Positions 12,238 through 58,344 of a DNA stretch of 64,000 nt are shown here, piece by piece. The position numbers and the translations under genes were made by a program. The stretch's first letter is position 1. The number at the start of each line of letters is the position of its first letter. The notes beneath the pieces were generated by a model. That model was not told the origin of the DNA. It saw nothing but the letters and a program-made list of their open reading frames with translations, and made no database searches. This DNA comes from a bacterium (GTDB taxonomy: Bacteria; SAR324; XYD2-FULL-50-16; G965216635), in assembly GCA_965216635.1 (NCBI GenBank), contig OZ244188.1, positions 136,001-200,000 of the forward strand, written 5' to 3'.

Positions 12238-13491
12238 ATGCAAGAAGTAACAAAAAGGGCGTTAAATAGCTCTCTTAAAAATTGTGAGACAAAATTAGCT
12301 CAATTTAACCAACGGGCTGGTTTTCAACGGGCGAGTTTTCGTGGAGCGTTATTGCTAGGTGCGGTTTTGTTGAGTTTGCTATTTGTAGGTAATCTGCAAG
12401 CACAGAGCAGCGTTAGCACAAAACAGGGATTTTTCGCGGGTATTGTCTATCTACAAGGATTCGGAGTAGATACCACAAAAACTAGCACAAGCTCTGCTAC
12501 TGGCTATGAAATCACTGGCTATGGAGAGGCAACCACTGGAATAGATTTAACTGGTGGAAATCCTAACTGGCCTACTGCAACAGCAACTGGAATGAGAGCT
12601 TTACTAAAAGCAAACTGTGAAACAGGAATAACGAGGATTACACAAACAGATGGAAATTACTTTTTCCCCGTGAGTACCTTTAGCTCTTTTAATGAGATTA
12701 AGGATGCTACTGTAACATCCCTAGACAGTGTTACTGGAGTTCGATTTAGAAATGGAAAAGACCCAAGTGAAGACTCCCATTGTCGTAGGCATTTTTACGG
12801 TGATCTTTCCTCTGGAAGAACCGCTATTAATTTTTCTGCCTATGAGATAGCGACTCCAGATTCGCTTTCAAAATCCCCTCTCCCCAGCACAGAGAGCGAC
12901 GCACTCAACGGTGTCGGTCTGCAAGTCGGCTGGCGAGGAGAAAAATGGAGAGCCTCCTTGACTCACTTTACTGGCAAGGGTGGAGCTAACGAGCTCGTCA
13001 ATACAGTGGTGATGGCGGAGTATTTTTTTCACGAGGAGTTTTTTGCAGGAGGCGGTCTAGCGAGTATGAAGCTTACCAATGGCTCTACTAGTGCTTCGGC
13101 TACTAGTCCCGTGTTAACGGTAGGCTATAAGGAGAACTTAACTCCCAACCTATTCTTTAATATTAGCTTGACGAAGTATATCTCGGGGGTTTCTCTGAGC
13201 CGTTCTGCTCCAGCTTCTGCTCCGATTCCCACTGGCAGAACTTTTAGCGAAACACAGACTGCACGCGGTGATTCAGCCTTTCTTGGAGGCCTAGTTTATA
13301 TAAATGACAGGGGAAGTGCATTTAAATTCAGTTATGATGTTGGTGCTATTGTAGATAGCAGAATAGAAGTAACCCAAGTCCGCACAAGAGATGTGGAAAT
13401 ACAAGAAGTTGAAATTCCAGCAGCGGAGAAAATTGAAGCTGAAATCAAAGCCCCCGTAGTCGTCAGCATTTCCCTGCTTTGGCGCTTTTAA
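12238..13491 (+). CDS. Paralogous outer-membrane beta-barrel protein, copy 1 (conserved N-terminal MQEVTKRALNSSLKNCETK extension, hydrophobic signal-like segment, C-terminal …VVVSISLLWRF)
   Basis: C-terminal aromatic-X-Phe OMP signature, alternating beta-strand pattern, 5-member paralog family with shared upstream region. Confidence 0.6.
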   Translation: MQEVTKRALNSSLKNCETKLAQFNQRAGFQRASFRGALLLGAVLLSLLFVGNLQAQSSVSTKQGFFAGIVYLQGFGVDTTKTSTSSATGYEITGYGEATTGIDLTGGNPNWPTATATGMRALLKANCETGITRITQTDGNYFFPVSTFSSFNEIKDATVTSLDSVTGVRFRNGKDPSEDSHCRRHFYGDLSSGRTAINFSAYEIATPDSLSKSPLPSTESDALNGVGLQVGWRGEKWRASLTHFTGKGGANELVNTVVMAEYFFHEEFFAGGGLASMKLTNGSTSASATSPVLTVGYKENLTPNLFFNISLTKYISGVSLSRSAPASAPIPTGRTFSETQTARGDSAFLGGLVYINDRGSAFKFSYDVGAIVDSRIEVTQVRTRDVEIQEVEIPAAEKIEAEIKAPVVVSISLLWRF

Positions 13492-13597
13492 CAGAGTTGT
13501 TGAAAAAAATGCAAAATTCTTTTTTTTTGTTTGCTTTTAATTTTTTTTCAGTTATATTTCTAATTTTAATCTCTTCTAACTTTTATTAAATATTATT

Positions 13598-14902
13598 ATG
13601 CAAGAAGTAACAAAAAGAGCGTTAAAAACACCTCTTAAAAATTGTGAGACAAAAGTAGCCCAATTTAATCAACGGGCTGGTTTTCAATGGGCTGGTTTTC
13701 AATGGGCTGGTTTTCAATGGGCTGGCTTCAAATGGAATGGCGTTGTATTGCTAGGTGCGATTTTGTTGAGTTTGCTATTTGTAGGTAATCTGCAAGCACA
13801 GAGCAGCGTTAGCACAAAACAGGGATTTTTCGCGGGTATTGTTTATCTACAAGGATTCGGAGTAGATACCACAAAAACTAGCACAAGCTCTGCTACTGGC
13901 TATGAAATCACTGGCTATTCAAACGACGAAACTAGAATAGACGCAACAGGTGGGAATATTTATTTGAATAAGATAGTACTAACTAGCATCAGAGTTTTAT
14001 TCAAAGAAAACTGTGAAGCAGGAACAACGAGTATTACACAAACAGGTGGAGATGCAAATTCAAATGGAAATTACTATTTTGCCTCGAAGCACTTCAGCTC
14101 TTTTAATGAGATTAAGGATGCTACTGAAACAGCCAAGGGAGGCACTATTGTTGAAACTGGATTTAGAAATGGAACAGTGGCAACTCATGACTCCTATTGT
14201 CGCAGGTACTTTTACGGAGATCTTTCCTCTGGAAGAACCACTATTAGTTTTTCTGCCTATGAGATAGCGACTCCAGATTCGCCTTCAAAACCCCCCGTCA
14301 CCAGCACAGAGAGCGACGCACTCAACGGTGTCGGTCTGCAAGTCGGCTGGCGAGGAGAAAAATGGAGAGCCTCTCTGACTCACTTTACTGGCAAGGGTGG
14401 AGCTAACGAGCTCGTCAATACAGTGGTGATGGCGGAGTATTTTTTTCACGAGGAGTTTTTTGCAGGAGGCGGTCTAGCGAGTATGAAACTTACCAATGGA
14501 TCTACTAGCGCCTCGGCTACTAGTCCCGTGTTAACGGTAGGCTATAAGGAGAACTTAACTCCCAACCTATTCTTTAATATTAGCTTGACGAAGTATATCT
14601 CGGGTATTTCTCTGAGCCGTTCTACTAATCCAGCTCAGATTCCCACTGGCGCCCCTCTTATAAGAAAAACACAGACTAAAGATGGTGATACAGTGTACAT
14701 TGGAGGAATAGTTGAGAGGAATGAAGCACGGTTTCGATATAGCTCCGCATTAGAAAGTGTGTCAGATTCCAGAATAGAAGCAACCCAAGTCCGTAGCCGA
14801 GATGTGGAAATACAACAAGTCACAACTCCAGCAGCGCAGAAGATAGAAGCCGAAATCAAAGCCCCCGTAGTCGTCAGCATTTCCCTGCTGTGGCGCTTTT
14901 AA
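13598..14902 (+). CDS. Paralogous outer-membrane beta-barrel protein, copy 2 (4 copies of GFQWA pentapeptide repeat in N-terminal extension)
   Basis: As copy 1; 15-bp in-frame tandem repeat GCTGGTTTTCAATGG. Confidence 0.6.
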   Translation: MQEVTKRALKTPLKNCETKVAQFNQRAGFQWAGFQWAGFQWAGFKWNGVVLLGAILLSLLFVGNLQAQSSVSTKQGFFAGIVYLQGFGVDTTKTSTSSATGYEITGYSNDETRIDATGGNIYLNKIVLTSIRVLFKENCEAGTTSITQTGGDANSNGNYYFASKHFSSFNEIKDATETAKGGTIVETGFRNGTVATHDSYCRRYFYGDLSSGRTTISFSAYEIATPDSPSKPPVTSTESDALNGVGLQVGWRGEKWRASLTHFTGKGGANELVNTVVMAEYFFHEEFFAGGGLASMKLTNGSTSASATSPVLTVGYKENLTPNLFFNISLTKYISGISLSRSTNPAQIPTGAPLIRKTQTKDGDTVYIGGIVERNEARFRYSSALESVSDSRIEATQVRSRDVEIQQVTTPAAQKIEAEIKAPVVVSISLLWRF

Positions 14903-15009
14903 CAGAATTGTTGAAAAAAATGCAAAATTCTTTTTTTTTATTTTCTTTTTTATTTTTTTTCAGTTATATTTCTATTTTTACCTTCTTCTAACCTTTATTA
15001 AATATTATT

Positions 15010-16353
15010 ATGCAAGAAGTAACAAAAAGGGCGTTAAAAACACCTCTTAAAAATTGTGAGACAAAAGTAGCTCAGGCTGGTTTTCAATGGGCTAACCAAT
15101 GGGCTAATCAACGGGCTGGTTTTCAATGGGCTAATCAACGGGCTGGATTCCAATGGAATGGCGTTGTATTGCTAGGTGCGGTTTTGTTGAGTTTGCTATT
15201 TGTAGGTAATCTGCAAGCACAGAGCCCCAATGGAAACACAAAACAGGGATTTTTCGCGGGTATTGTTTATCTACAAGGATTCGGAGTAGATACCACAAAA
15301 ACTAGCACAAGCTCTGCTACTGGCTATGAAATCACTGGCTATTCAAATGACGAAACTAGAATAGACGCAACCTCTGGATTGTCTTATTGGGATACCCCAG
15401 CGGGGACGACAGCCGGAATTGGAGCTAGAGCTTTAATAGCGGCAAACTGTGAACGTGATGCAACAAATACTACATATCTAGGTGAAAATTATTATCTTCC
15501 AAGAAATTTCTATTTCTTCGATTCTTTTGATCCTGGTGCGAAACAGTCTTTAGCTGATATTAATAGTTCAATGAATGATGCTACTGTTACTTTTAATGAC
15601 GACACTATTTCTAGTAGAATCTTTCGTTCAGGATTGGTAGCTGGAGAAACATCCTATTGTAAAACTTACTTTGATAGCCTTCCCCAAATTAATTTTTCTG
15701 CCTATGATGTAACTCCAGATTCGCCTTCAAAACCCCCCGTCACCAGCACAGAGAGCAACGCACTCAACGGTGTTGGTCTGCAATTCGGCTGGCGAGGAGA
15801 AAAATGGAGAGCCTCCTTGACTCACTTTACTGGCAAAGGTGGAGCTAACGAGCTCGTCAATACAGTGGTGATGGCGGAGTATTTTTTTCACGAGGAGTTT
15901 TTTGTAGGAGGCGGTCTAGCGAGTATGAAGCTTACCAATGGCTCTACTAGCGCCTCGGCTACTAGTCCCGTGATCACGGTAGGCTATAAGGAGAACTTAA
16001 CTCCCAACCTATTCTTTAATATTAGCTTGACAAAGTATATCTCGGGTATTTCTCTGAGCCGTTCTACTAGTCCTACAGCTACTAACAAAACTTTTACCCG
16101 CACACAGACTGAACGCGGTAAAGATAGTCATAAAGCAACGATTGGTAGCAGAATCACAGTTCCTGCTAATCGGCAAAGCGGGGTAGGCGCTATTTTTCAA
16201 CAAGCAGCAGGTCCTGATAATAGAATAGAAGTAACCCAATTCCGCAGCAGAGATGTGGAAATAGAAGAAGTCACAACTCCAGCAACGCAGAAGATAGAAG
16301 CTGAAATCAAAGCCCCCGTAGTCGTCAGCATTTCCCTGCTGTGGCGCTTTTAA
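15010..16353 (+). CDS. Paralogous outer-membrane beta-barrel protein, copy 3 (mixed GFQWA/NQWA/NQRA repeats)
   Basis: As copy 1. Confidence 0.6.
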   Translation: MQEVTKRALKTPLKNCETKVAQAGFQWANQWANQRAGFQWANQRAGFQWNGVVLLGAVLLSLLFVGNLQAQSPNGNTKQGFFAGIVYLQGFGVDTTKTSTSSATGYEITGYSNDETRIDATSGLSYWDTPAGTTAGIGARALIAANCERDATNTTYLGENYYLPRNFYFFDSFDPGAKQSLADINSSMNDATVTFNDDTISSRIFRSGLVAGETSYCKTYFDSLPQINFSAYDVTPDSPSKPPVTSTESNALNGVGLQFGWRGEKWRASLTHFTGKGGANELVNTVVMAEYFFHEEFFVGGGLASMKLTNGSTSASATSPVITVGYKENLTPNLFFNISLTKYISGISLSRSTSPTATNKTFTRTQTERGKDSHKATIGSRITVPANRQSGVGAIFQQAAGPDNRIEVTQFRSRDVEIEEVTTPATQKIEAEIKAPVVVSISLLWRF

Positions 16354-16383
16354 TAGAGTTGTGTAGGCACCGAATCACCTAAA

Positions 16384-16521
16384 CTTTTGAATTTGCATTC
16401 TGTTTAGCCTATGCAGCGTTAAAAAAAAATTTTAACTCTTGAAATATTACATATATTCCTGCGAGCTAAAATTTTTTTTTGCCTTGCCTAGCCGTCACAT
16501 AACGCAAATTCAAAGGTCTAT
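16384..16521. mobile_element. MITE-like element inserted in the loop of the post-OMP3 hairpin (GGCACCGAATCACCTAAAC | element | ACCTAAACTCGGTGCC), with an apparent 8-bp duplication ACCTAAAC
   Basis: The uninterrupted version of the same hairpin exists on the other strand near 57005-57035; element body is >90% identical to the 59556-59699 copy. Confidence 0.65.
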
Positions 16522-16805
16522 TACCTAAACTCGGTGCCATTCAAAAAACCACCTCCCCGCCAAACCGCATCCCCTCCAAAAACACCTAAAAAAACAAAAT
16601 TGCAGGGACATTTTTTTTGCTTTTCGTGAAAACAAAAAAAACACAAAGCTCTCACTAAAAATAAACCCTTGCATTAAGTTATATTTTGGCTAAACTAGGA
16701 AAATTTTAAAAAAAGATAAAAAGTTATGTTTTTTTTGTTTGCTTTTAATTTTTTTTCAGTTATATTTCTATTTTTACCTTCTTCTAACCTTTATTAAATA
16801 TTATT

Positions 16806-18089
16806 ATGCAAGAAGTAACAAAAAGGGCGTTAAATAGCTCTCTTAAAAATTGTGAGACAAAAGTAGCTCAGGCTGGTTTTCAATGGGCTAATCAACGGGC
16901 TGGATTCCAATGGAATGGCGTTGTATTGCTAGGTGCGGTTTTGTTGAGTTTGCTATTTGTAGGTAATCTGAAAGCACAAACCCAAAATGGTTCCAATGGA
17001 AGCACAAAACAGGGATTTTTCGCTGGTATTGTCTATCTACAAGGATTCGGAGTAGATACCACAAAAAGCAGCACAAACTCTGCTACTGGCTATAGAATCA
17101 AATATTCAAACGATATTACTGGAATAGACGCAACAGGTGGGAATCATACGTTGAGCCCTTTACTTTTACTAACTAGCATCAGAGCTTTATTCAAAGAAAA
17201 CTGTGAAGAAGGAACAACGAATTTTACACAAACGGGTGGACAAGCAAATTCAAATGGAAATTACTATTTTACCAGGGATTACTTCGTATCTTTTAATGAG
17301 ATTAAGGATGCTACTGTAATAGAATTTGTAGACCCTATTGCTCGAACTAGATTTAACAATGGAAAAGTGGTAACTCATGACTCCTATTGTCGCAGGTACT
17401 TTTACGGTGATCTTTCCTCCACTAGAACCCCTATTAATCTTCCTGATCCTGATGTGACTGCAGATTCGCTTTCAAAACCCCCCGTCACCAGCACAGAGAG
17501 CGATGCACTCAACGGTATCGGTCTGCAAGTCGGCTGGCGAGGGGAAAAATGGAGAGCCTCTCTGACTCACTTCACTGGCAAAGGTGGAGCTAACGAGCTC
17601 GCCAATACAGTGGTAATGGCGGATTATTTTTTTCACGAGAAATTTTTTGCAGGAGGCGGTCTAGCGAGTATGAAGCTTACCAATGGTTCAACTAGCGCCT
17701 CGGCTACTAGCCCCGTGGTTCAAGTAGGCTATAAGGAAAACTTAACTCCCAACCTATTCTTTAATATTAGCTTGACAAAGTATATCTCGGGTATTTCTCT
17801 GAGCCGTTCTACTAATCCAGCTCCGATTCCCACTGGCGCCCCTCTTATTAGAAAAACACAGACTAAAGATGGTGATACAGTATTCATTGGAGGAACAGTT
17901 ACTAGAATTGACAGGTCGAATCAATATAACTCCTTATTTAGCAGTGTGTTAGATTCCAGAATAGAAGTAACCCAAGTCCGCAGCCGAGATGTGGAAATAC
18001 AACAAGTCACAACTCCAGCAGCGCAGAAGATAGAAGCCGAAATCAAAGCCCCCGTAGTCGTCAGCATTTCCCTGCTTTGGCGCTTTTAA
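16806..18089 (+). CDS. Paralogous outer-membrane beta-barrel protein, copy 4
   Basis: As copy 1; shares about 270-bp upstream region with copy 1. Confidence 0.6.
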   Translation: MQEVTKRALNSSLKNCETKVAQAGFQWANQRAGFQWNGVVLLGAVLLSLLFVGNLKAQTQNGSNGSTKQGFFAGIVYLQGFGVDTTKSSTNSATGYRIKYSNDITGIDATGGNHTLSPLLLLTSIRALFKENCEEGTTNFTQTGGQANSNGNYYFTRDYFVSFNEIKDATVIEFVDPIARTRFNNGKVVTHDSYCRRYFYGDLSSTRTPINLPDPDVTADSLSKPPVTSTESDALNGIGLQVGWRGEKWRASLTHFTGKGGANELANTVVMADYFFHEKFFAGGGLASMKLTNGSTSASATSPVVQVGYKENLTPNLFFNISLTKYISGISLSRSTNPAPIPTGAPLIRKTQTKDGDTVFIGGTVTRIDRSNQYNSLFSSVLDSRIEVTQVRSRDVEIQQVTTPAAQKIEAEIKAPVVVSISLLWRF

Positions 18090-44743: not shown

Positions 44744-46423
44744 TTGGCTTTTTTTTATCATCAAACAATGCAAACAAACGAAAAAAAAAAACTGATCCAA
44801 GAAGCTGCTTTTGTTCCTTTTTGGGTGTTGAATAGTCGTCAATTATGCGACCTTGAATTACTTCTTAGCGGTAGTTTTGCACCTATGAATAGTTTTTTAG
44901 GGCAAAAAGATTACGAATCTGTATTAGCTAAAATGCGAATGGCAGATAACTCACTTATGCCTATCCCTGTTACCTTAGATGTTTCTGAAAAATTTATTGA
45001 ACCGCTTTCTGTAGGAGAAAAAATTGCTTTACGAACATCGGATATGACTCCGTTAGCTATTTTAACCATTTCTGAAATATGGAAACCTGATTTTGAAAAA
45101 GAAGCTCAAGCAGTTTATGGAACTTGTGATCAAACACACCCTGGAGTAGATTATCTGATGAGTTCTACAAATCCTTTTTATATTAGTGGAGAAATTCAAA
45201 AAATTAGCCTACCTCAATACCCTGATTATAAAGCATTAAGATATACCCCAGAGACTTTAAAAGCCTTCTTCAAGGAGCAAAAATGGGAGCAGATAGTAGC
45301 CTTTCAGACTCGCAACCCAATGCACAGAGCACATGTAGAATTGACACAGTATGCAATGCAAAAAAGTAATGCAAAACTATTACTACACCCTGTCGTAGGA
45401 GTCACAAAACCCGGTGATATAGACTATTACACGAGAGTGAAATGCTACTTAGAAATTTTGAAATACTACCCTAAGGACAGTGCAAAATTAGCACTATTGC
45501 CTCTCGCTATGAGGATGGCAGGACCTCGCGAAGCAATTTGGCACGGTTTAATTCGTAAAAATTATGGCTGTAATCACTTTATTATAGGTAGAGACCACGC
45601 AGGACCAGGTGTAGATAAACAAGGAAAACCATTTTATGAGGAATACGAAGCACAAGAATTATTCCAAAAGCACGAAAAAGAATTAGGTATTAAAATGATA
45701 GCTATAGAAAAAATAGGTTATTCTCCTTCACAAAAAAAATATATTTTTCAAAAAGATTTTACCGAAGAAACAAAGTTTATTTCAGGGACTAAAATGAGAA
45801 AGATGCAAGAAGAAGGAGAACAAATTCCAGAATGGTTCACTTATTCAGAAGTAGCAAAACAACTACAAGAATCTTATCCTCCATTGAAAAAAAGAGGTTT
45901 TACTGTTTTTTTTACAGGGCTTTCTGGATCAGGTAAGTCTACACTCGCTCAAGCCTTAATCGTAAAGATTAGAGAAAAAACCTATCGTGGCATTACGCTA
46001 CTAGATGGAGATATTGTCCGCAGTAACCTTTCCAGTGAATTAGGATTTTCTAAAGAACATCGTTCTATTAATATACGGCGTATAGGTTTTGTTGCTAGTG
46101 AAATCACAAAAAACAACGGTGTTGCTATTTGTGCTCCCATTGCTCCTTATGCAGAAGATCGTCTTTTCAATCGTAAGTTGATTTCAGAAGTCGGGGGTTA
46201 TATTGAGGTTTATGTGAATACACCTTTTTCAGTTTGTGCAGAACGTGATGTAAAAGGATTTTATTTGCGGGCTAGTAAAAAGCTAACCAAAAATTTTACC
46301 GGTGTAGATGATCCTTATGAAGAGCCCCGAAATCCTGATATAGTAGTAACTACAACAGTAGATTCTGTTGAAAAAAGCACTCTATCTATTGTAAAAAAAA
46401 TTGAAGAATTAGGTTATATCTAA
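44744..46423 (+). CDS. sat: Bifunctional sulfate adenylyltransferase (ATP sulfurylase) / adenylyl-sulfate kinase-like fusion protein. Start may be MQTNEKK at 44768
   Basis: QTRN and GRDHAG ATP-sulfurylase motifs; C-terminal APS-kinase P-loop GLSGSGKST. Confidence 0.8.
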   Translation: MAFFYHQTMQTNEKKKLIQEAAFVPFWVLNSRQLCDLELLLSGSFAPMNSFLGQKDYESVLAKMRMADNSLMPIPVTLDVSEKFIEPLSVGEKIALRTSDMTPLAILTISEIWKPDFEKEAQAVYGTCDQTHPGVDYLMSSTNPFYISGEIQKISLPQYPDYKALRYTPETLKAFFKEQKWEQIVAFQTRNPMHRAHVELTQYAMQKSNAKLLLHPVVGVTKPGDIDYYTRVKCYLEILKYYPKDSAKLALLPLAMRMAGPREAIWHGLIRKNYGCNHFIIGRDHAGPGVDKQGKPFYEEYEAQELFQKHEKELGIKMIAIEKIGYSPSQKKYIFQKDFTEETKFISGTKMRKMQEEGEQIPEWFTYSEVAKQLQESYPPLKKRGFTVFFTGLSGSGKSTLAQALIVKIREKTYRGITLLDGDIVRSNLSSELGFSKEHRSINIRRIGFVASEITKNNGVAICAPIAPYAEDRLFNRKLISEVGGYIEVYVNTPFSVCAERDVKGFYLRASKKLTKNFTGVDDPYEEPRNPDIVVTTTVDSVEKSTLSIVKKIEELGYI

Positions 46424-46507
46424 AATAAAAAAATCAAATATGTTATTATTTTTTTATTGACAATTAGTAGTTATTCGTTTAGTGGTATTAGTTTAAGTTA
46501 TTTTAAT

Positions 46508-47746
46508 ATGAAAAAAATAAAAGTAGATAATCCCATTGTAGAATTAGACGGCGATGAAATGACCCGTGTCATTTGGAAATTCATTAAGGACAAACTGATT
46601 TTACCTTACTTGGATTTGCCGATTGAATATTTTGATTTGGGAATCCAAAACAGAGATGCTACTGAAGATAAAGTCACTCTCGCAGCAGCAGAAGCAATTA
46701 AAAAATACAATGTAGGTATTAAGTGTGCCACGATCACACCTGATGAAGCGAGAATAAAAGAGTTTGGCTTAAAAAAAAAATGGAATAGTCCTAATGGGAC
46801 AATTAGAAATACTATTGGAGGCACAGTATTTCGTGAACCTATTATTTGTAAAAATATCCCCCGTCTAGTTTCTAACTGGACAAAACCAATAGTGATTGGA
46901 AGACATGCTTTTGGAGATCAGTATAGAGCAAAAAGTATGTTAATACCGGGTAAAGGAAGTTTAAGTTTAGTATTTACTCCAGCCGATGGCTCCAAAACTC
47001 TGACCAGAGAAATTTTTGATTTTCCTTCCGAAGGAGTAGCAATGGGAATGTCTAACCTCAAAGATTCAATTCAAGGTTTTGCTAGAGCTTCTCTCAGCTA
47101 TGGACTGCAGAAAAAATGGCCCGTCTATTTTTCTACTAAAAACACTATTCTCAATATTTACGACGGTTATTTTAAAAACATTTTTAGTGAAATTTTTGAA
47201 GCAGAATTTAAAGAACTTTTTGAAAAAGCAGGCATTACCTACGAACATCGTTTGATTGATGATATGGTAGCTGCCGCTCTCAAATGGTCTGGAGGTTTTG
47301 TTTGGGCTTGTAAAAATTACGACGGGGATGTGCAATCTGATACTGTGGCGCAAGGTTTTGGTTCTTTAGGCTTGATGACTTCGGTATTATTGGCATCCGA
47401 TGGCAAAACTATGGAATCAGAAGCTGCTCACGGCACGGTCACCCGCCATTTTCGCTTGCACCAAAAAGGAGAAGAGACTAGCACAAACCCTATCGCAAGT
47501 ATTTTTGCTTGGACGAGAGGGCTTATTCATAGAGGCAAACTGGATTCCAATCAACCTTTAGTGGATTTTGCTGTGCAGTTGGAGAAAGTTTGTATAGCCA
47601 CAGTAGAAGCAGGTTTTATGACAAAAGATTTGGCTGTTAACATTAAAGGCGACAAGACACAAAGAAGCGATTATCTCAATACGCAAGAATTTTTAGATAA
47701 ATTGGATATAGAGCTTTCTCAAGGAGCTCAAAGCCATCATAACTAA
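46508..47746 (+). CDS. icd: Isocitrate dehydrogenase [NADP], eukaryote-like homodimeric type
   Basis: 412 aa from [23 protein letters not shown]…; subfamily II IDH signature regions. Confidence 0.85.
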
Positions 47747-47788
47747 TGCAAAGATTTCTTTCAAACTTTAGATTGAAAAAATCTTTGA

Positions 47789-48334
47789 ATGGGCTATAGT
47801 TTTAGAAAATTATTAAAAAACAAAATGGATATTAAAAATTTGGTGCTTTTTATTTTGAATAACTGCAAGCCTAATATGGGAGTAAAAAAGCTTAACAAAT
47901 TAGCTTTTTTGTTGGAGTTCACTTATATTTTTGATCATTTTGATGGTGATTTTAGTAAACATAAAAAGCTAACAAAAACTAATTTTGTAGCTTTACCCAT
48001 GGGTCCCGTGATTCAGGATTACAAAGAATTATTCCAAGGGATGAAAAAAGAAAAATTGATTGTGCAAAATACAAAAGCAGATATAGGTAAAATTGATTAT
48101 CTTCCGCTAGTCAATAGAGATTTTGAAATTGACGAGAATAAGAAAAATTTTTTGTTACGAGTTTTGGATAAATACAAAAATCTCTCCGCAGCACAATTAC
48201 AAAACTATACTCATTCTTTGGATAGTTACGGTATTACTATGTCAGAAAACAACAACAAACCCGGTAAAATTATAGATAAAGAGCTGGCTCATTTGGACGC
48301 TATTTTATCTTTAGAAAATCTGATGGACGATTAA
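47789..48334 (+). CDS. Panacea-domain (DUF4065, SocA/PanA-like) putative antitoxin
   Basis: LNKLAFLLEF… and …FVALPMGPVIQDY… resemble the Panacea core (LxKLLYxAD… / …AxxYGPVxxxxY); 181 aa. Confidence 0.5.
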   Translation: MGYSFRKLLKNKMDIKNLVLFILNNCKPNMGVKKLNKLAFLLEFTYIFDHFDGDFSKHKKLTKTNFVALPMGPVIQDYKELFQGMKKEKLIVQNTKADIGKIDYLPLVNRDFEIDENKKNFLLRVLDKYKNLSAAQLQNYTHSLDSYGITMSENNNKPGKIIDKELAHLDAILSLENLMDD

Positions 48335-48339
48335 AATCT

Positions 48340-48618
48340 ATGCAGGTTATTCAGGTGATCTATGAACCAGATTTTGAAAAAAATTCTAAAAAAGAATTGC
48401 AAAAGAATTATTCTCAAGTAAAAAAAATTTTTGATAGAAAAGTCAATTTTCTTCTAAAGGAAGGACTTTTATACCCCTCTCTAAACACCAAAAAAACTGA
48501 ACCAAAATCAAGCAATATTTGGGAGTTTTACATCACAAGAAAAGAATATCGTTGTTTTTTTCGTTATGATAAGAAAGAAAAAACAACGACTAATATAAAA
48601 ATAGGCAAACACTTATAA
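48340..48618 (+). CDS. Small basic protein (92 aa), putative RelE/HigB (Gp49-like) family toxin partner of the upstream Panacea protein
   Basis: Size, pI, and C-terminal EFYITRKEYRCFFRYDKKEK pattern reminiscent of Gp49/HigB toxins; 5-bp spacing to upstream gene. Weak call. Confidence 0.35.
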   Translation: MQVIQVIYEPDFEKNSKKELQKNYSQVKKIFDRKVNFLLKEGLLYPSLNTKKTEPKSSNIWEFYITRKEYRCFFRYDKKEKTTTNIKIGKHL

Positions 48619-48650
48619 TTTGAATCTGCATAACTTAAAACTGCATAACT

Positions 48651-51116
48651 ATGAAATTATCTTTAAACTGGTTAAAAGACTATGTTACTTTACCAGAAAT
48701 TACCGCTGAAGAACTACTAAGCAAGGTGTCTCTTAGTGTTTGTGAAATGGAAAGTTGCGTGGTTGTTGGAGATTGCTTAAAAAAAATTGTAGTAAGTGAA
48801 GTTTTGGAAATTAATCCGCACCCTAATGCAGATAGATTGACTTTGGTGAAAGTAAGCACAGGCAAAGAAATGTTTGAGGTGGTCTGCGGAGCAAAAAATT
48901 TTTCTGTAGGCGACAAAGTGCCTTACGCTCCTTTAGGCACTGCTCTCATAGATTTTACGGTGAAAAAAGCAAAAATCAGAGGGGTTGAGAGTTGCGGTGT
49001 GCTTTGTGCGGAAGATGAAATAGGCTTTGGAGAGGATCATAGCGGATTGATGCTTTTGGATAAAAAAGAAAAATTAGGAAAGCCATTAGCAGAAATTTAT
49101 CCCGATCAATTAGATACAATTTTGGATTTGGATAATAAGTCTATCAATCACCGACCTGATCTTTGGGGGCATTATGGCTTTGCGAGGGAGCTTTCGGTTT
49201 TGTTTGGGGTGTCTTTTAAGGAATTTTCACCAACTCAAAATATAAAAGGCAAGACGAAAAGCAATTTTTCCATTTCTGTAGAATGCAAAGATTTAGTTCC
49301 AAGATTTTCTGCTTTAGATATAGAAGGCTTACAGATATGCCCCAGTCCCGATTGGCTAAAATTTCGTCTGCATAGAGTAGGTTTGCGAGCAATTAGTAAT
49401 CTTGTAGATGTTACAAACTATGTGATGCTGGATTTAGGACAGCCGATGCATATTTTTGATAAAGAGCGGTTGAGTTCCTCCCAGCTAGTAGTTCGCAAAG
49501 CCAAAGCCAAAGAAAAGCTGACTACTCTAAAAGAAAAAGAAATAGAATTATGCGAGGAAGATATTTGCATTTCCGATGGCAAAAAACCTGTTTCTTTAGC
49601 GGGGGTTATGGGTGGTTTAAATAGTGGCATTCAAGAAAACACCAAAAATACTTTGCTAGAGGCTGCTTGCTGGGATGCAAGCACTATCCGTAAAACTGCA
49701 GCGAGAACGAAACAGCGCACCGATGCTAGTCAAAGGTTTGAAAAATCATTAGACCCAACACTTACTTCTTTGGGAATTTATAAAGCAGTAGAAATTTTAA
49801 AAATTTCTAATCCCAATTTAGAAATAAAAGGAGAATTGATAGATATAGCCTCACCTGAAATTACCCCCCAACCTCAAGAGCAAACAATAGAATTTCAACC
49901 GAAAGATTGCGATAGAATTTTAGGAGTAAGTGTGCCCAAAGAAAAAATGAAAGAAATTCTTTTAGGACTGGGTTTTAAGATTGAAGAAAAAAACGAAAGA
50001 TGGCGAGTCAAAGTGCCTAGCTGGAGAGCGACTAGGGATGTTGCTATTGCAGAAGATTTAATTGAAGAAATAGGGAGATTTTACGGATACGATAAAATTA
50101 AGGCAGAAGCACCAGTCTTTCCAGTTTTGCATCCAGAAATAAACCAACAAAGAAAACTGGAAAGAAAAGCAAAACAAATTTTAGTGGATAGGGGGTATTT
50201 TGAAACCTTTAGTTATCCTTTGAGTAGTGAAGAGAGAGAAAAGGAGTGGAGTATTCCTAATTTAAAACAAGGTAAGATGCTTATCAATCCGACATCAGAA
50301 GAAGAAACTAGAATGAGATTAAGTTTATTGCCTCAAGTCTGTGACGCAGTTTCTTTGAATACGAAGGAATATTCTCATTTTCGTTTTTTTGAATTGGGTA
50401 GGATTTATACTTGGGATGACGCTATTTCATCCACTCGGCAACCACAAGAAGAAAATATATTTTTTTGGGCTGCTTACGATGAAAAGATTAGCCTTGGTGA
50501 ACTTTTTGAATCAGTAAAAACAGACCTTTTTATTTGGCTTGCCAAACTATTGCAAAAATCTTGTGTTCTAAAACCGCTAGCCCAAAAACCACTAAAGGCA
50601 GAACAGACAAATCTAAAGGCAGAAAGTGATTTTCACCCTTACGCTAACGCAGAAATTTTAATTGAGCCAAAAAACTATTTAAATAAAAACTATTCGCAAA
50701 AAATAGGTAGAATTTTTTCTTTTACTCCCCTTAAAAGAAAGCAGCTCGGTTGGGATGGGAATGCAGTTTTTATAGAATTGAATTTTGATTTAGTCTTTCA
50801 AAGAGTGAAAAGAAGCTCACAGAATATGTTTGTAGAACCAAATAAGTATCCACCCGCGAAATTTGAAATATCTTTGGTTGTGCCTATCCGCACTTATTTC
50901 TCTGAATTGGAAGTGATCGCAAAAAAAATTGAAATACTAGAAAAAATAGAATTTCAATACGATTATTTTCTACCCGAACAGCCTGATAAAAAATCTGTTA
51001 CCTTAGCTATGACTTTTCGTTCTAAAGAGCAAACTGTGGATAGCGAGCGTTTAACCAAAATACAAGATTCCATAGTAGCTTCTTTTGAAGAGAAAGGTTT
51101 TATGCTCCGTCGTTAG
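48651..51116 (+). CDS. pheT: Phenylalanine--tRNA ligase beta subunit
   Basis: N-terminal tRNA-binding (EMT/Myf) domain, B3/B4 and B5 domains, 821 aa; no pheS adjacent. Confidence 0.85.
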   Translation: MKLSLNWLKDYVTLPEITAEELLSKVSLSVCEMESCVVVGDCLKKIVVSEVLEINPHPNADRLTLVKVSTGKEMFEVVCGAKNFSVGDKVPYAPLGTALIDFTVKKAKIRGVESCGVLCAEDEIGFGEDHSGLMLLDKKEKLGKPLAEIYPDQLDTILDLDNKSINHRPDLWGHYGFARELSVLFGVSFKEFSPTQNIKGKTKSNFSISVECKDLVPRFSALDIEGLQICPSPDWLKFRLHRVGLRAISNLVDVTNYVMLDLGQPMHIFDKERLSSSQLVVRKAKAKEKLTTLKEKEIELCEEDICISDGKKPVSLAGVMGGLNSGIQENTKNTLLEAACWDASTIRKTAARTKQRTDASQRFEKSLDPTLTSLGIYKAVEILKISNPNLEIKGELIDIASPEITPQPQEQTIEFQPKDCDRILGVSVPKEKMKEILLGLGFKIEEKNERWRVKVPSWRATRDVAIAEDLIEEIGRFYGYDKIKAEAPVFPVLHPEINQQRKLERKAKQILVDRGYFETFSYPLSSEEREKEWSIPNLKQGKMLINPTSEEETRMRLSLLPQVCDAVSLNTKEYSHFRFFELGRIYTWDDAISSTRQPQEENIFFWAAYDEKISLGELFESVKTDLFIWLAKLLQKSCVLKPLAQKPLKAEQTNLKAESDFHPYANAEILIEPKNYLNKNYSQKIGRIFSFTPLKRKQLGWDGNAVFIELNFDLVFQRVKRSSQNMFVEPNKYPPAKFEISLVVPIRTYFSELEVIAKKIEILEKIEFQYDYFLPEQPDKKSVTLAMTFRSKEQTVDSERLTKIQDSIVASFEEKGFMLRR

Positions 51117-51288
51117 TTATTCTGGTGCCAATTATTTAGGTTGCCAATTATTTAGGTTGCCAGTAACAATAAAGGCATTATTCTAGTGCTAGTTATTGGA
51201 GTTTTTTTTGTAGATTTTGCCTGAATTTTGCAATAATCAGCTACAAGTTGTAATTTTTAACATTTTTAACAACCAACGAATACCAATT

Positions 51289-51609
51289 ATGGCAAAATAC
51301 ATTGTAAGATACGCACTCAAAAATAGAGACAGCGAAAACACAGATTTAGAAAAAATACTTCATAAAATATCTACTTCTTGCGAAAAAATTGCAAAGGCAA
51401 CCTTTGTGATTGATTCTGAGAAGACAGCTAGAAGAGTAATGGAAAGTCTCGCTTCGGAGATGAATATTAAAGACAACTTCATGGAGGAATTTTATACAGC
51501 GCTTCCAGCAGCACTTTATAATACTATTGGGGCAGATTCTGCTAATTACGCTACAGATAAAATCTTTATTGGAGAATTGAGAGGAAAGGCTGCGTGGTGT
51601 TGGAAGTAG
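51289..51609 (+). CDS. Hypothetical protein (about 107 aa from MAKYIVRY…)
   Basis: ORF track; start chosen at internal Met with plausible spacing. Confidence 0.3.
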   Translation: MAKYIVRYALKNRDSENTDLEKILHKISTSCEKIAKATFVIDSEKTARRVMESLASEMNIKDNFMEEFYTALPAALYNTIGADSANYATDKIFIGELRGKAAWCWK

Positions 51610-57087: not shown

Positions 57088-58344
57088 TTAAAAGCGCCAC
57101 AGCAGGGAAATGCTGACGACTACGGGGGCTTTGATTTCGGCTTCTATCTTCTCCGTTGCTGGAGTTTCAACTTCTTGTATTTCCACATCTCTTGTGCCGA
57201 CTTGGGTTGCTTGTATTCTATTATCGTTTTCCTCGCTGAGGTACAGCAGACCTAATGTATTATATGTGCCACACGGCGAAATATTGCAAATACGCGTTCC
57301 TATCGTGACTGAATCACCACCTTCTCCGGACTGTGTTTCGCTAAAAGTTCTGCCAGTGGGAATCGGAGCAGAAACTGTACGGTTTAGAGAAATACCCGAG
57401 ATATACTTTGTCAAGCTAATATTAAAGAATAGGTTGGGAGTTAAGTTCTCCTTATAGCCTACCGTTAACACGGGACTAGTAGCCGAGGCGCTAGTTGAGC
57501 CATTGGTAAGCTTCATACTCGCTAGACCGCCTCCTGCAAAAAACTCCTCGTGAAAAAAATACTCCGCCATCACCACTGTATTGACGAGCTCGTTAGCTCC
57601 ACCCTTGCCAGTAAAGTGAGTCAGAGAGGCTCTCCATTTTTCTCCTCGCCAGCCGAATTGCAGACCGACACCGTTGAGTGCGTCGCTCTCTGTGCTAGTG
57701 ACGGGGGATTTTGAAAGCGAATCTGGAGTCGCTATCTCATAGGCAGAAAAACTAATAGTGGTTCTGTTGGAGGAATCATCACCGAAAAAATAGCTAAAAC
57801 AAACGGATGTTTTTTCGTCTTTACCATTATATATGTTACCTGGAGAGTCTGTAGTTCCTTCATTAGACGACTTTGTGCCTTCATTAAAGGATTGGAAACT
57901 ATCACTTCTAAAATAATAGTCTGTTCCCTTTGAATCAACAGATGCTTTGCCTTCTTTACAGGTTGCGGTCATTAAAGCGCTTATTCCAGCCATTACTGCT
58001 GGACTGTGAGACGATCTTATTTTAGTAATTTCTATTCCAATGGTTTCGTTTGAATAGGTTACTCCATAGCTAGTAGAAGAGCTTGTGCTAGTTTTTGTGG
58101 TATCTACTCCGAAACCTTGTAGATAGACAATACCAGCAAAAAATCCCTGTTTCGTGCTAGCGCTGCTCTGTGCTTGCAGATTACCTACAAATAACAAACT
58201 CAACAAAACCGCACCTAGCAATACAACGCCATTCCATTGGAAGCTAGCCCGTTGAAAACTCGCCCGTTGAAAACCTGCCTGAGCTACTTTTGTCTCACAA
58301 TTTTTAAGAGGTGTTTTTAACGTTCTTTTTGTTACTTCTTGCAT
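57088..58344 (-). CDS. Paralogous outer-membrane beta-barrel protein, copy 5 (minus-strand counterpart of the 12238-18089 family)
   Basis: Same N-terminal MQEVTKRTLKTPLKNCETKVAQ… extension with GFQRA/SFQRA repeats and C-terminal …VVVSISLLWRF; shares upstream region (58345-58460) with copies 1 and 4. Confidence 0.6.
   Translation of the reverse strand: MQEVTKRTLKTPLKNCETKVAQAGFQRASFQRASFQWNGVVLLGAVLLSLLFVGNLQAQSSASTKQGFFAGIVYLQGFGVDTTKTSTSSSTSYGVTYSNETIGIEITKIRSSHSPAVMAGISALMTATCKEGKASVDSKGTDYYFRSDSFQSFNEGTKSSNEGTTDSPGNIYNGKDEKTSVCFSYFFGDDSSNRTTISFSAYEIATPDSLSKSPVTSTESDALNGVGLQFGWRGEKWRASLTHFTGKGGANELVNTVVMAEYFFHEEFFAGGGLASMKLTNGSTSASATSPVLTVGYKENLTPNLFFNISLTKYISGISLNRTVSAPIPTGRTFSETQSGEGGDSVTIGTRICNISPCGTYNTLGLLYLSEENDNRIQATQVGTRDVEIQEVETPATEKIEAEIKAPVVVSISLLWRF

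Follow-up and report, generated by a model that had tools for sequence, protein, structure and literature searches.

The icd–pheT interval carries a two-gene module

We analysed a stretch of 64,000 nucleotides (nt) from a bacterium of the SAR324 lineage (assembly GCA_965216635.1, contig OZ244188.1, positions 136,001 to 200,000 of the forward strand), which is called the window below and whose own numbering is used throughout, and we describe in it a pair of small genes, panA and panT, predicted to form a toxin–antitoxin (TA) module. On the plus strand, a fused ATP-sulfurylase/APS-kinase gene is followed by icd, panA, panT and pheT, and the location of the pair between icd and pheT, as given in a preliminary description of this DNA, was borne out by the Pfam domains of both flanking genes (Table 1). 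The two open reading frames (ORFs) reported there, 47789–48334 (ORF1, 181 amino acids) and 48340–48618 (ORF2, 92 amino acids), were recovered at the same coordinates on the plus strand with a spacer of 5 nt, and only the start of ORF1 was corrected, to 47825. No further copy of panA or panT is present elsewhere in the window.

PanA is a stand-alone Panacea-domain protein

ORF1 had been assigned to the Panacea (formerly DUF4065) family on the basis of two stretches, LNKLAFLLEF and ALPMGPVIQDY, both of which are indeed present, and the Pfam comparison upheld the assignment: residues 57–144 of the 181-residue form match PF13274 (SocA_Panacea) with 46.5 bits, against a cutoff of 25.7 (E = 7.9e-12). 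The PHROG family phrog_1281 covers residues 11–163 (E = 1.3e-12). The second stretch contains the GPV signature of Panacea, which is reported to be critical for neutralisation (Kurata et al. 2022 PNAS, PMC8832971), and among 24 PanA homologues G60 and P61 do not vary and V62 hardly does.

The 181-residue form begins at ATG 47789, and this codon was rejected as the panA start, because a DNA alignment shows TAA or TAG at that site in a relative of 84–91% identity, and because it lies inside a promoter-like element, between the −35 and −10 hexamers. Since the N-terminal helix downstream of ATG 47825 is, moreover, conserved even in homologues of 32–35% identity, the start was placed at 47825, most likely the real one, from which a protein of 169 amino acids would be made, the length of PanA in the relatives. 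The protein collection has no entry for the 181-residue translation but includes a form of 152 residues, apparently the NCBI call from ATG 47876.

An AlphaFold (AF2) model of PanA, computed from 24 homologues, has a predicted local distance difference test score (pLDDT) of 87.6 and a predicted template-modelling score of 0.86, and consists of a single compact domain with a disordered acidic tail, without helix-turn-helix (HTH), zinc-binding (ZBD), PAD1 or Phd-C addition. When this model was searched against the PDB, neither a solved structure resembling PanA nor a solved Panacea structure turned up; the only matches, of the MarR or ORC type, had probabilities not above about 0.5 and E ≥ 0.24 and carry no meaning, so that a function of PanA as a winged-helix DNA binder was dropped. 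Predicted viral proteins in BFVD, one of them named SocA-like Panacea, match the model with template-modelling (TM) scores of 0.6–0.7. ORF1 is a stand-alone Panacea-domain antitoxin, the neutralising activity itself being predicted from sequence.

PanT is a divergent RelE/ParE-superfamily protein

As stated in the preliminary description, ORF2 is basic (isoelectric point 9.74; 21 Lys and Arg against 11 Asp and Glu residues), and its partner PanA is near neutral. Used as a single query, ORF2 matched weakly the PHROG family phrog_1213, annotated as ‘RelE-like toxin’ (E = 6.8e-4), and a word-indexed search found only five relatives. An exhaustive search with hidden Markov models through 1.84 billion protein representatives (50% identity) yielded 49 relatives of the toxin family at E ≤ 1e-3, and among the 44 near-full-length members Pfam matches were obtained to HigB-like (19), ParE_toxin (16), YoeB (15), YafQ (10, best 5e-12) and Gp49 (7) models. 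The profile of this family, from a broad alignment, aligned over its full length with YoeB of Staphylococcus aureus (Sa2YoeB) at E = 2.7e-9 and matched Thermus RelE at 7.5e-4, and a profile made from just the 16 Panacea-linked sequences, here the Panacea-linked clade, also aligned with Sa2YoeB over the full length (E = 1.3e-3). The alignment of this clade against single sequences of Escherichia coli YoeB, RelE and YafQ by hhalign was not significant, with E of 0.025–0.63, and served as a register check only. Within the clade, only 5 of the 16 members have even weak Pfam matches, and hence this subfamily has been overlooked by curated models.

The best AlphaFold model of ORF2 (pLDDT 77.6) has a strand–helix–four-strand order (strands 5–8, 50–53, 60–66, 70–77 and 82–90; helix 12–41), which is, as far as a model from a shallow alignment can be read, the microbial-RNase-like fold of the RelE/ParE superfamily, defined by an N-terminal strand, a helical hairpin and an antiparallel sheet of 3–4 strands. 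In a Foldseek search with this model, the top match was archaeal RelE (aRelE, 1wmi; E = 7e-5, TM score 0.66), Sa2YoeB reached a TM score of 0.69 (7v6w; also 7v5y), and the top matches were all RelE-family mRNases, including HP0892, Thermus and E. coli RelE, RelBE2 and YafQ (TM scores 0.52–0.69, probability 1.0). HigB structures were ranked low (E ≥ 0.007, mostly ≥ 0.2), and ParE chains were 27th or lower.

Fold and family profile together support ORF2 as a divergent RelE/ParE-superfamily protein, and nearer to the YoeB, RelE and YafQ mRNases than to HigB/Gp49. Of the former label, a small RelE/HigB-like toxin, the RelE part thus stands, and the HigB part was given up. PanT does belong to the same superfamily as HigBA/Gp49 (PF05015, PF05973), and 3 of the 16 clade members weakly match Gp49 and 1 of 16 HigB-like; however, ORF2 itself matches neither model, His54, Asp90, Tyr91 and His92 of HigB have no evident counterpart in PanT, and the antitoxin gene comes first. 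The canonical higBA order is toxin-first.

Predicted active site of PanT

Six residues are invariant in the Panacea-linked clade (S47, K51, F63, R71, C72 and H91), and its conserved motifs are PSLNTKK, WEFYI, YRC and G-x-H. In the Sa2YoeB alignments, R71 falls on the Arg within ...HQHRVVY, and the C-terminal His within ...WSHY is matched by H91; these positions correspond to Arg65 and His83 of E. coli YoeB, and K51, within PSLNTKK, corresponds to Glu46. In YoeB, Glu46 is the general base, Arg65 stabilises the transition state and His83 is the general acid, and the spatial position of His83 is occupied by Arg81 in RelE and by His87 in YafQ (PMC3814384, PMC5027501).

Compared with the YefM–YoeB systems (E. 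coli YoeB and Sa2YoeB; 2a6q, 7v5y, 7v6w, 4v8x), which provide the best sequence-profile match and a near-best structural match, PanT is of similar size (84–92 amino acids), has the Arg pair R65/R71 and the His pair H83/H91 in register, and ends one residue past the His; the short subclade that includes the window protein ends in ...NHL, and YoeB similarly in ...HY. PanT differs from YoeB in having Lys for Glu46 and Leu for Tyr84, so that the catalytic set is incomplete, in having a Panacea partner instead of Phd/YefM, and in leaving the YoeB_toxin model (PF06769) unmatched; it is therefore not counted as a member of that family. The RelBE systems (E. coli RelE; aRelE PHS013, 1wmi; Thermus RelE, 2khe) include the top structural match and likewise have a small basic toxin; PanT has Arg at the R61 position of RelE, and its lysine near the active site resembles RelE Lys52/54. 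Unlike RelE, PanT has His at the position of Arg81 and no C-terminal helix with Tyr87, and its partner is not of the RelB type.

Conserved pairing, co-divergence and purifying selection

In every close-clade context checked, the toxin gene lies directly after a Panacea gene. The Panacea gene is immediately upstream, and usually overlapping, in loci L001–L005 (a close relative, 84% toxin identity), L006/7, L008 (a metagenome-assembled genome (MAG) of Candidatus Nealsonbacteria), L009 (another MAG), L010/11 (where the pair is located between ahpC and dctPQM), L012 and L022. Compared with the relative of 84–91% identity, the ratio of non-synonymous to synonymous substitution rates (dN/dS) is 0.20 for panA, 0.25 for panT and 0.13 for pheT. 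Because homologous pairs recur in at least 8 other loci in different contexts and because dN/dS is low, ORF1 and ORF2 are genuine genes and not chance ORFs, and the ratios of 0.20 and 0.25 indicate that both are maintained by purifying selection. Moreover, the pairwise identities of PanA and PanT co-vary (Spearman 0.84 over 28 locus pairs, which, coming from eight loci, are not independent).

The nearest PanA homologues outside this group (50–59% identical) are from Patescibacteria (also called CPR, the candidate phyla radiation). In Candidatus Abawacabacteria (GCA_001773455.1; L019/L020/L021, 2989–3144), the toxin homologue is cut to 51 amino acids, with the beta-sheet bearing the Arg and His lost, and the PanA beside it is intact; this is toxin decay with the antitoxin kept, a typical decay pattern. 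More distant toxin relatives are paired with small non-Panacea partners (P0014, and P0025, a Pfam YafQ_toxin), which is partner swapping as described for TA networks (PMC10440598).

Two further observations concern the relatives. The synonymous rate (dS) of the TA genes against L001/L003 is 0.21 and 0.33, far below the 0.72 of adjacent pheT, and panA DNA is 91–95% identical to L001/L003, compared with roughly 75–89% for its neighbours; a more recent exchange of the module between lineages, or a constraint on synonymous sites, is possible. In sample ERZ26869290, contigs L003, L004, L005 and L013 are palindromic, with inverted repeats of the panA–panT–pheT fragment or of DUF3800 genes, which probably reflects faulty assembly; broken toxin copies (P0003, P0004) and PanA fragments (P0056, P0057, P0087) come from this sample as well.

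A lineage-specific insertion at pheT

In an identity profile, homology between the window and the relative starts at the icd stop codon (about 47732) and extends across the promoter, panA, panT and pheT into the genes that follow; upstream, icd is replaced in the relative by TraB-like and peptidase S66 genes. The PheT proteins next in similarity (59% and 56% identical) are encoded beside or near pheS and without a TA pair. Hence, the comparison of synteny in relatives that the preliminary description had recommended supports panA–panT as a lineage-specific insertion at pheT. There is no pheS and no rRNA in the whole window, and the window PheT shares no more than about 40–43% identity with named MAG proteins of Deltaproteobacteria, SAR324 and Lambdaproteobacteria.

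The GC content of the pair (0.27–0.30) is lower than that of its neighbours (0.35–0.39), which was rejected as a sign of recent transfer, since GC at third codon positions is the same and the difference comes from amino-acid composition. An origin from a mobile element was also considered and found no support, since tblastn returned no toxin homologue from the phage or plasmid collections and no PanA homologue from the phage collection; the locus is flanked by housekeeping genes, with no adjoining defence or mobile-element genes.

Upstream of panA, the inverted repeat directly 3′ of icd overlaps the −35 hexamer of the promoter candidate. Its RNA fold has −12.6 kcal/mol (z = −1.9), 9 of 200 shuffled sequences being equally stable, and the relatives retain the pairing via one apparent compensatory change, as read by eye; the repeat could be a terminator-like hairpin of icd, or an operator. 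The promoter candidate is kept in L001/L003, where the −10 hexamer reads TATAAT. At the panA–panT junction, the stop and start codons overlap in the relatives (TGATG) and the window has a 6-nt insertion instead. Similarly, the panT stop overlaps the pheT ATG in the relatives (ATGA), and the window carries about 36 nt extra there (48615–48650), which include a 15-nt tandem duplication at 48615–48644 (ATAATTTGAATCTGC / ATAACTTAAAACTGC). Since a scan of the plus strand between panT and pheT found no terminator-like site, pheT is probably co-transcribed with the pair.

Table 1. Features of the panA–panT locus (window coordinates)
Feature	Position	Strand	Remarks
icd (NADP isocitrate dehydrogenase)	46457..47746	+	Upstream neighbour; PF00180, E = 7.5e-61
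Inverted repeat/hairpin, 15-bp stem	47749..47788	+	Directly 3′ of icd stop; overlaps −35 hexamer
Sigma-70-like promoter candidate, TTGAAA-N16-TATAGT	47773..47800	+	10/12 consensus matches; consensus match only
panA, 169 amino acids	47825..48334	+	PF13274; start from conserved ATG
panA–panT spacer, AATCT, 5 nt	48335..48339	+	
panT, 92 amino acids	48340..48618	+	RelE/ParE-superfamily toxin by fold and family profile
panT–pheT spacer	48619..48650	+	
pheT (phenylalanyl-tRNA synthetase beta subunit)	48651..51116	+	Downstream neighbour; Pfam B3_4, B5, tRNA_bind, FDX-ACB

As for the neighbouring genes, the fused ATP-sulfurylase/APS-kinase gene that adjoins icd (44744–46423; PUA_2, ATP-sulfurylase and APS_kinase domains, 559 amino acids) and icd itself are listed with TTG starts that are probably too far upstream; the true start of icd is probably ATG 46508. 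No obvious Shine–Dalgarno sequence precedes any of the gene starts inspected. Between pheT and pta, an ORF of 130 amino acids (51217–51609) has no significant Pfam match (best E = 0.0021, below the cutoff), and the relative L001 has an ORF of 106 amino acids at the same position. Farther away in the window, five paralogous ORFs of 417–447 amino acids are 68–76% identical to each other, four in tandem at 12238–18089 (plus strand) and one at 57088–58344 (minus strand); they have no Pfam match at E ≤ 1e-3. Close to the N terminus they carry a signal-like hydrophobic segment, and their consensus terminates in ...SLLWRF; an outer-membrane beta-barrel family, variable in its loops, is suggested by this.

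Comparison with known Panacea pairs

The toxin domains described as partners of Panacea antitoxins number in the dozens, mRNases and ParE among them, and Dataset S1 of the same study lists untested clusters (relevant here are pT15/T14, pT31/T28 and pT70/T59) in which the toxins match HigB-2, YoeB/ParE, RelE or YafQ by HHpred and PanA has no N-terminal domain (Kurata et al. 2022, PMC8832971). The architecture of Panacea plus a RelE-fold toxin is thus already catalogued, and the earlier suggestion of an uncharacterised toxin type does not hold, the fold being a classical one. The new elements here are the subfamily to which the toxin belongs, the active-site variant predicted for it and its position as a pheT leader. 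Like the catalogued PanAT pairs, panA–panT is an antitoxin-first bicistron with a GPV-bearing Panacea protein of the ‘noNTD’ type, a small RelE/ParE-fold partner and a very short spacer or overlap; unlike them, its toxin is from a subfamily that is rare (about 49 representatives) and overlooked by curated models, and the pair sits in front of pheT. The window toxin seems to lie outside the RefSeq-based clusters of that catalogue.

Proposed mechanism and alternative explanations

With a probability of roughly two in three, we interpret the locus as a chromosomal type II PanA–PanT operon, in which PanT would be a RelE-fold, ribosome-dependent mRNase and PanA would inhibit it by direct binding. 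Transcription would start from the promoter just 3′ of icd and proceed through panA and then panT, probably running on into pheT. The most likely activity of PanT is that of an mRNA endonuclease dependent on the ribosome, which cuts in the ribosomal A site as YoeB, RelE and YafQ do, with H91, its penultimate residue, as the predicted general acid, R71 stabilising the transition state and K51 at the position of the general base Glu46. Because PanA has no additional HTH, ZBD, PAD1 or Phd-C domain, binding is proposed to occur via the globular Panacea domain; if the antitoxin were lost or triggered, the toxin would be freed and translation would stop. A stand-alone Panacea domain is able to neutralise directly (Ernits et al. 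2023 PNAS, PMC10440598), and the PanAT pairs tested neutralise by direct binding and complex formation, independently of ClpXP and Lon (Kurata et al., PMC8832971). Since PanA is stand-alone and the tested pairs bind in this way, direct type II neutralisation is likely, and the module is probably a real type II PanAT system, predicted to be active.

Several observations weigh against this interpretation. ORF2 alone has no match among Pfam, NCBIfam or PADLOC models, and phmmer and a three-sequence profile returned from the PDB sequences just spurious seryl-tRNA synthetase (SerRS) matches (E of 0.2–1), which were rejected. The alignment behind the E = 2.7e-9 for Sa2YoeB includes genuine YafQ/YoeB-like proteins, and the clade-only value of 1.3e-3 is marginal. 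The ORF2 model was built on three sequences, and of five models only the best (77.6) is confident, against 38–64 for the rest. The YoeB catalytic set is only partly kept, Arg and His being retained and Glu46 and Tyr84 being replaced by the invariant K51 and by L92, so that the Lys/Arg/His chemistry is a prediction. Gyrase poisons, too, are found with the RelE/ParE fold. Finally, 8 PanTs were non-toxic in E. coli (Kurata et al., PMC8832971).

The preliminary description saw in the pair a possible abortive-infection module, a role in which Panacea would sense phage infection and release the toxin, and which is compatible with the mechanism proposed above. A sensory role of Panacea has been hypothesised, and TA networks have been linked to defence systems (Ernits et al., PMC10440598); Panacea-like folds and PHROG families are, moreover, present in phages. 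However, a search of PADLOC-DB 2.0 gave no defence family at E ≤ 1 for PanA or PanT, and the housekeeping flanks together with the missing homologues in the phage (both proteins) and plasmid (toxin) collections argue the other way. Anti-phage defence is thus, in our estimate, an unlikely role for this module.

The direct antitoxin function of PanA would be unchanged if PanT were a ParE-like gyrase poison instead of an mRNase. The fold is common to ParE, ParDE structures appear in the Foldseek list, and 16 of the 44 family members match ParE_toxin (PF05016) and 12 of 44 match PF24732 (ParE_like); PF05016, however, also spans RelE-type RNases, so that its matches do not discriminate. ParE is likewise among the CDD domains of PanTs (Kurata et al., PMC8832971). 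Against a ParE-like activity speaks the structural ranking, in which ParE structures reach E of 0.19–0.5 and TM scores of 0.43–0.58, against E of 7e-5 to 1e-2 and TM scores of up to 0.69 for RelE, YoeB and YafQ, together with the clade-invariant Arg and C-terminal His at RNase catalytic positions. In addition, PanT stops right after its last strand, as YoeB does, and has no extended C-terminal region. A gyrase target is therefore quite unlikely.

A domesticated or inactive remnant, in which the toxin no longer arrests growth and the module is kept for its promoter and for translational coupling to the essential pheT, would agree with the overlap of the panT stop and the pheT start in the relatives, with the absence of a terminator between the two genes, and with pheS being no longer adjacent, which leaves pheT without its usual operon partner. 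Decay of the toxin is also known in this family, from the 51-residue Abawacabacteria copy and the fragments P0003 and P0004. Yet the window has a full-length panT in which none of the six clade-invariant residues has been lost; the gene evolves under purifying selection (omega 0.25), and its ORF has stayed intact although the 36-bp insertion uncouples it from pheT; a remnant is rather improbable. A SocA-like (type VI) mode, in which PanA would be a proteolytic adaptor handing the toxin to ClpXP without inhibiting it by binding, is highly improbable and orthology to SocA was ruled out, since, for all that SocA shares the Panacea domain and that the NCBIfam SocA_antitoxin equivalog (NF047745) gives a weak match (E = 7.9e-4), this match reaches 19.2 bits where the cutoff is 190, the partner is of RelE fold and not SocB-like, and neutralisation by the tested PanAs was independent of ClpXP/Lon, with complex formation (PMC8832971).

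Implications

A type II PanA–PanT operon of this kind would leave the current understanding of TA biology unchanged. It would, however, be a well-defined and tractable example of a stand-alone Panacea protein neutralising a classical RelE-fold toxin, a combination that has been catalogued and never tested. A small RelE-superfamily clade overlooked by curated models implies that similar toxins are present without annotation, mainly in Patescibacteria metagenomes, and the Lys-for-Glu exchange at the general-base position, if PanT is the ribosome-dependent mRNase predicted from its sequence, bears on the diversity of active sites among such enzymes. It is a doubtful extension that the Panacea-linked clade as a whole is a distinct subfamily of RelE-fold RNases with a Lys/Arg/His site, neutralised directly by a globular, stand-alone Panacea domain, and that the module in this lineage now serves as transcriptional and translational leader of the essential pheT, so that TA autoregulation or the activity of the toxin would modulate the supply of the beta subunit of phenylalanyl-tRNA synthetase and loss of the module would be costly. 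The fusion with the pheT operon would illustrate well how a selfish module comes to lie beside an essential gene.

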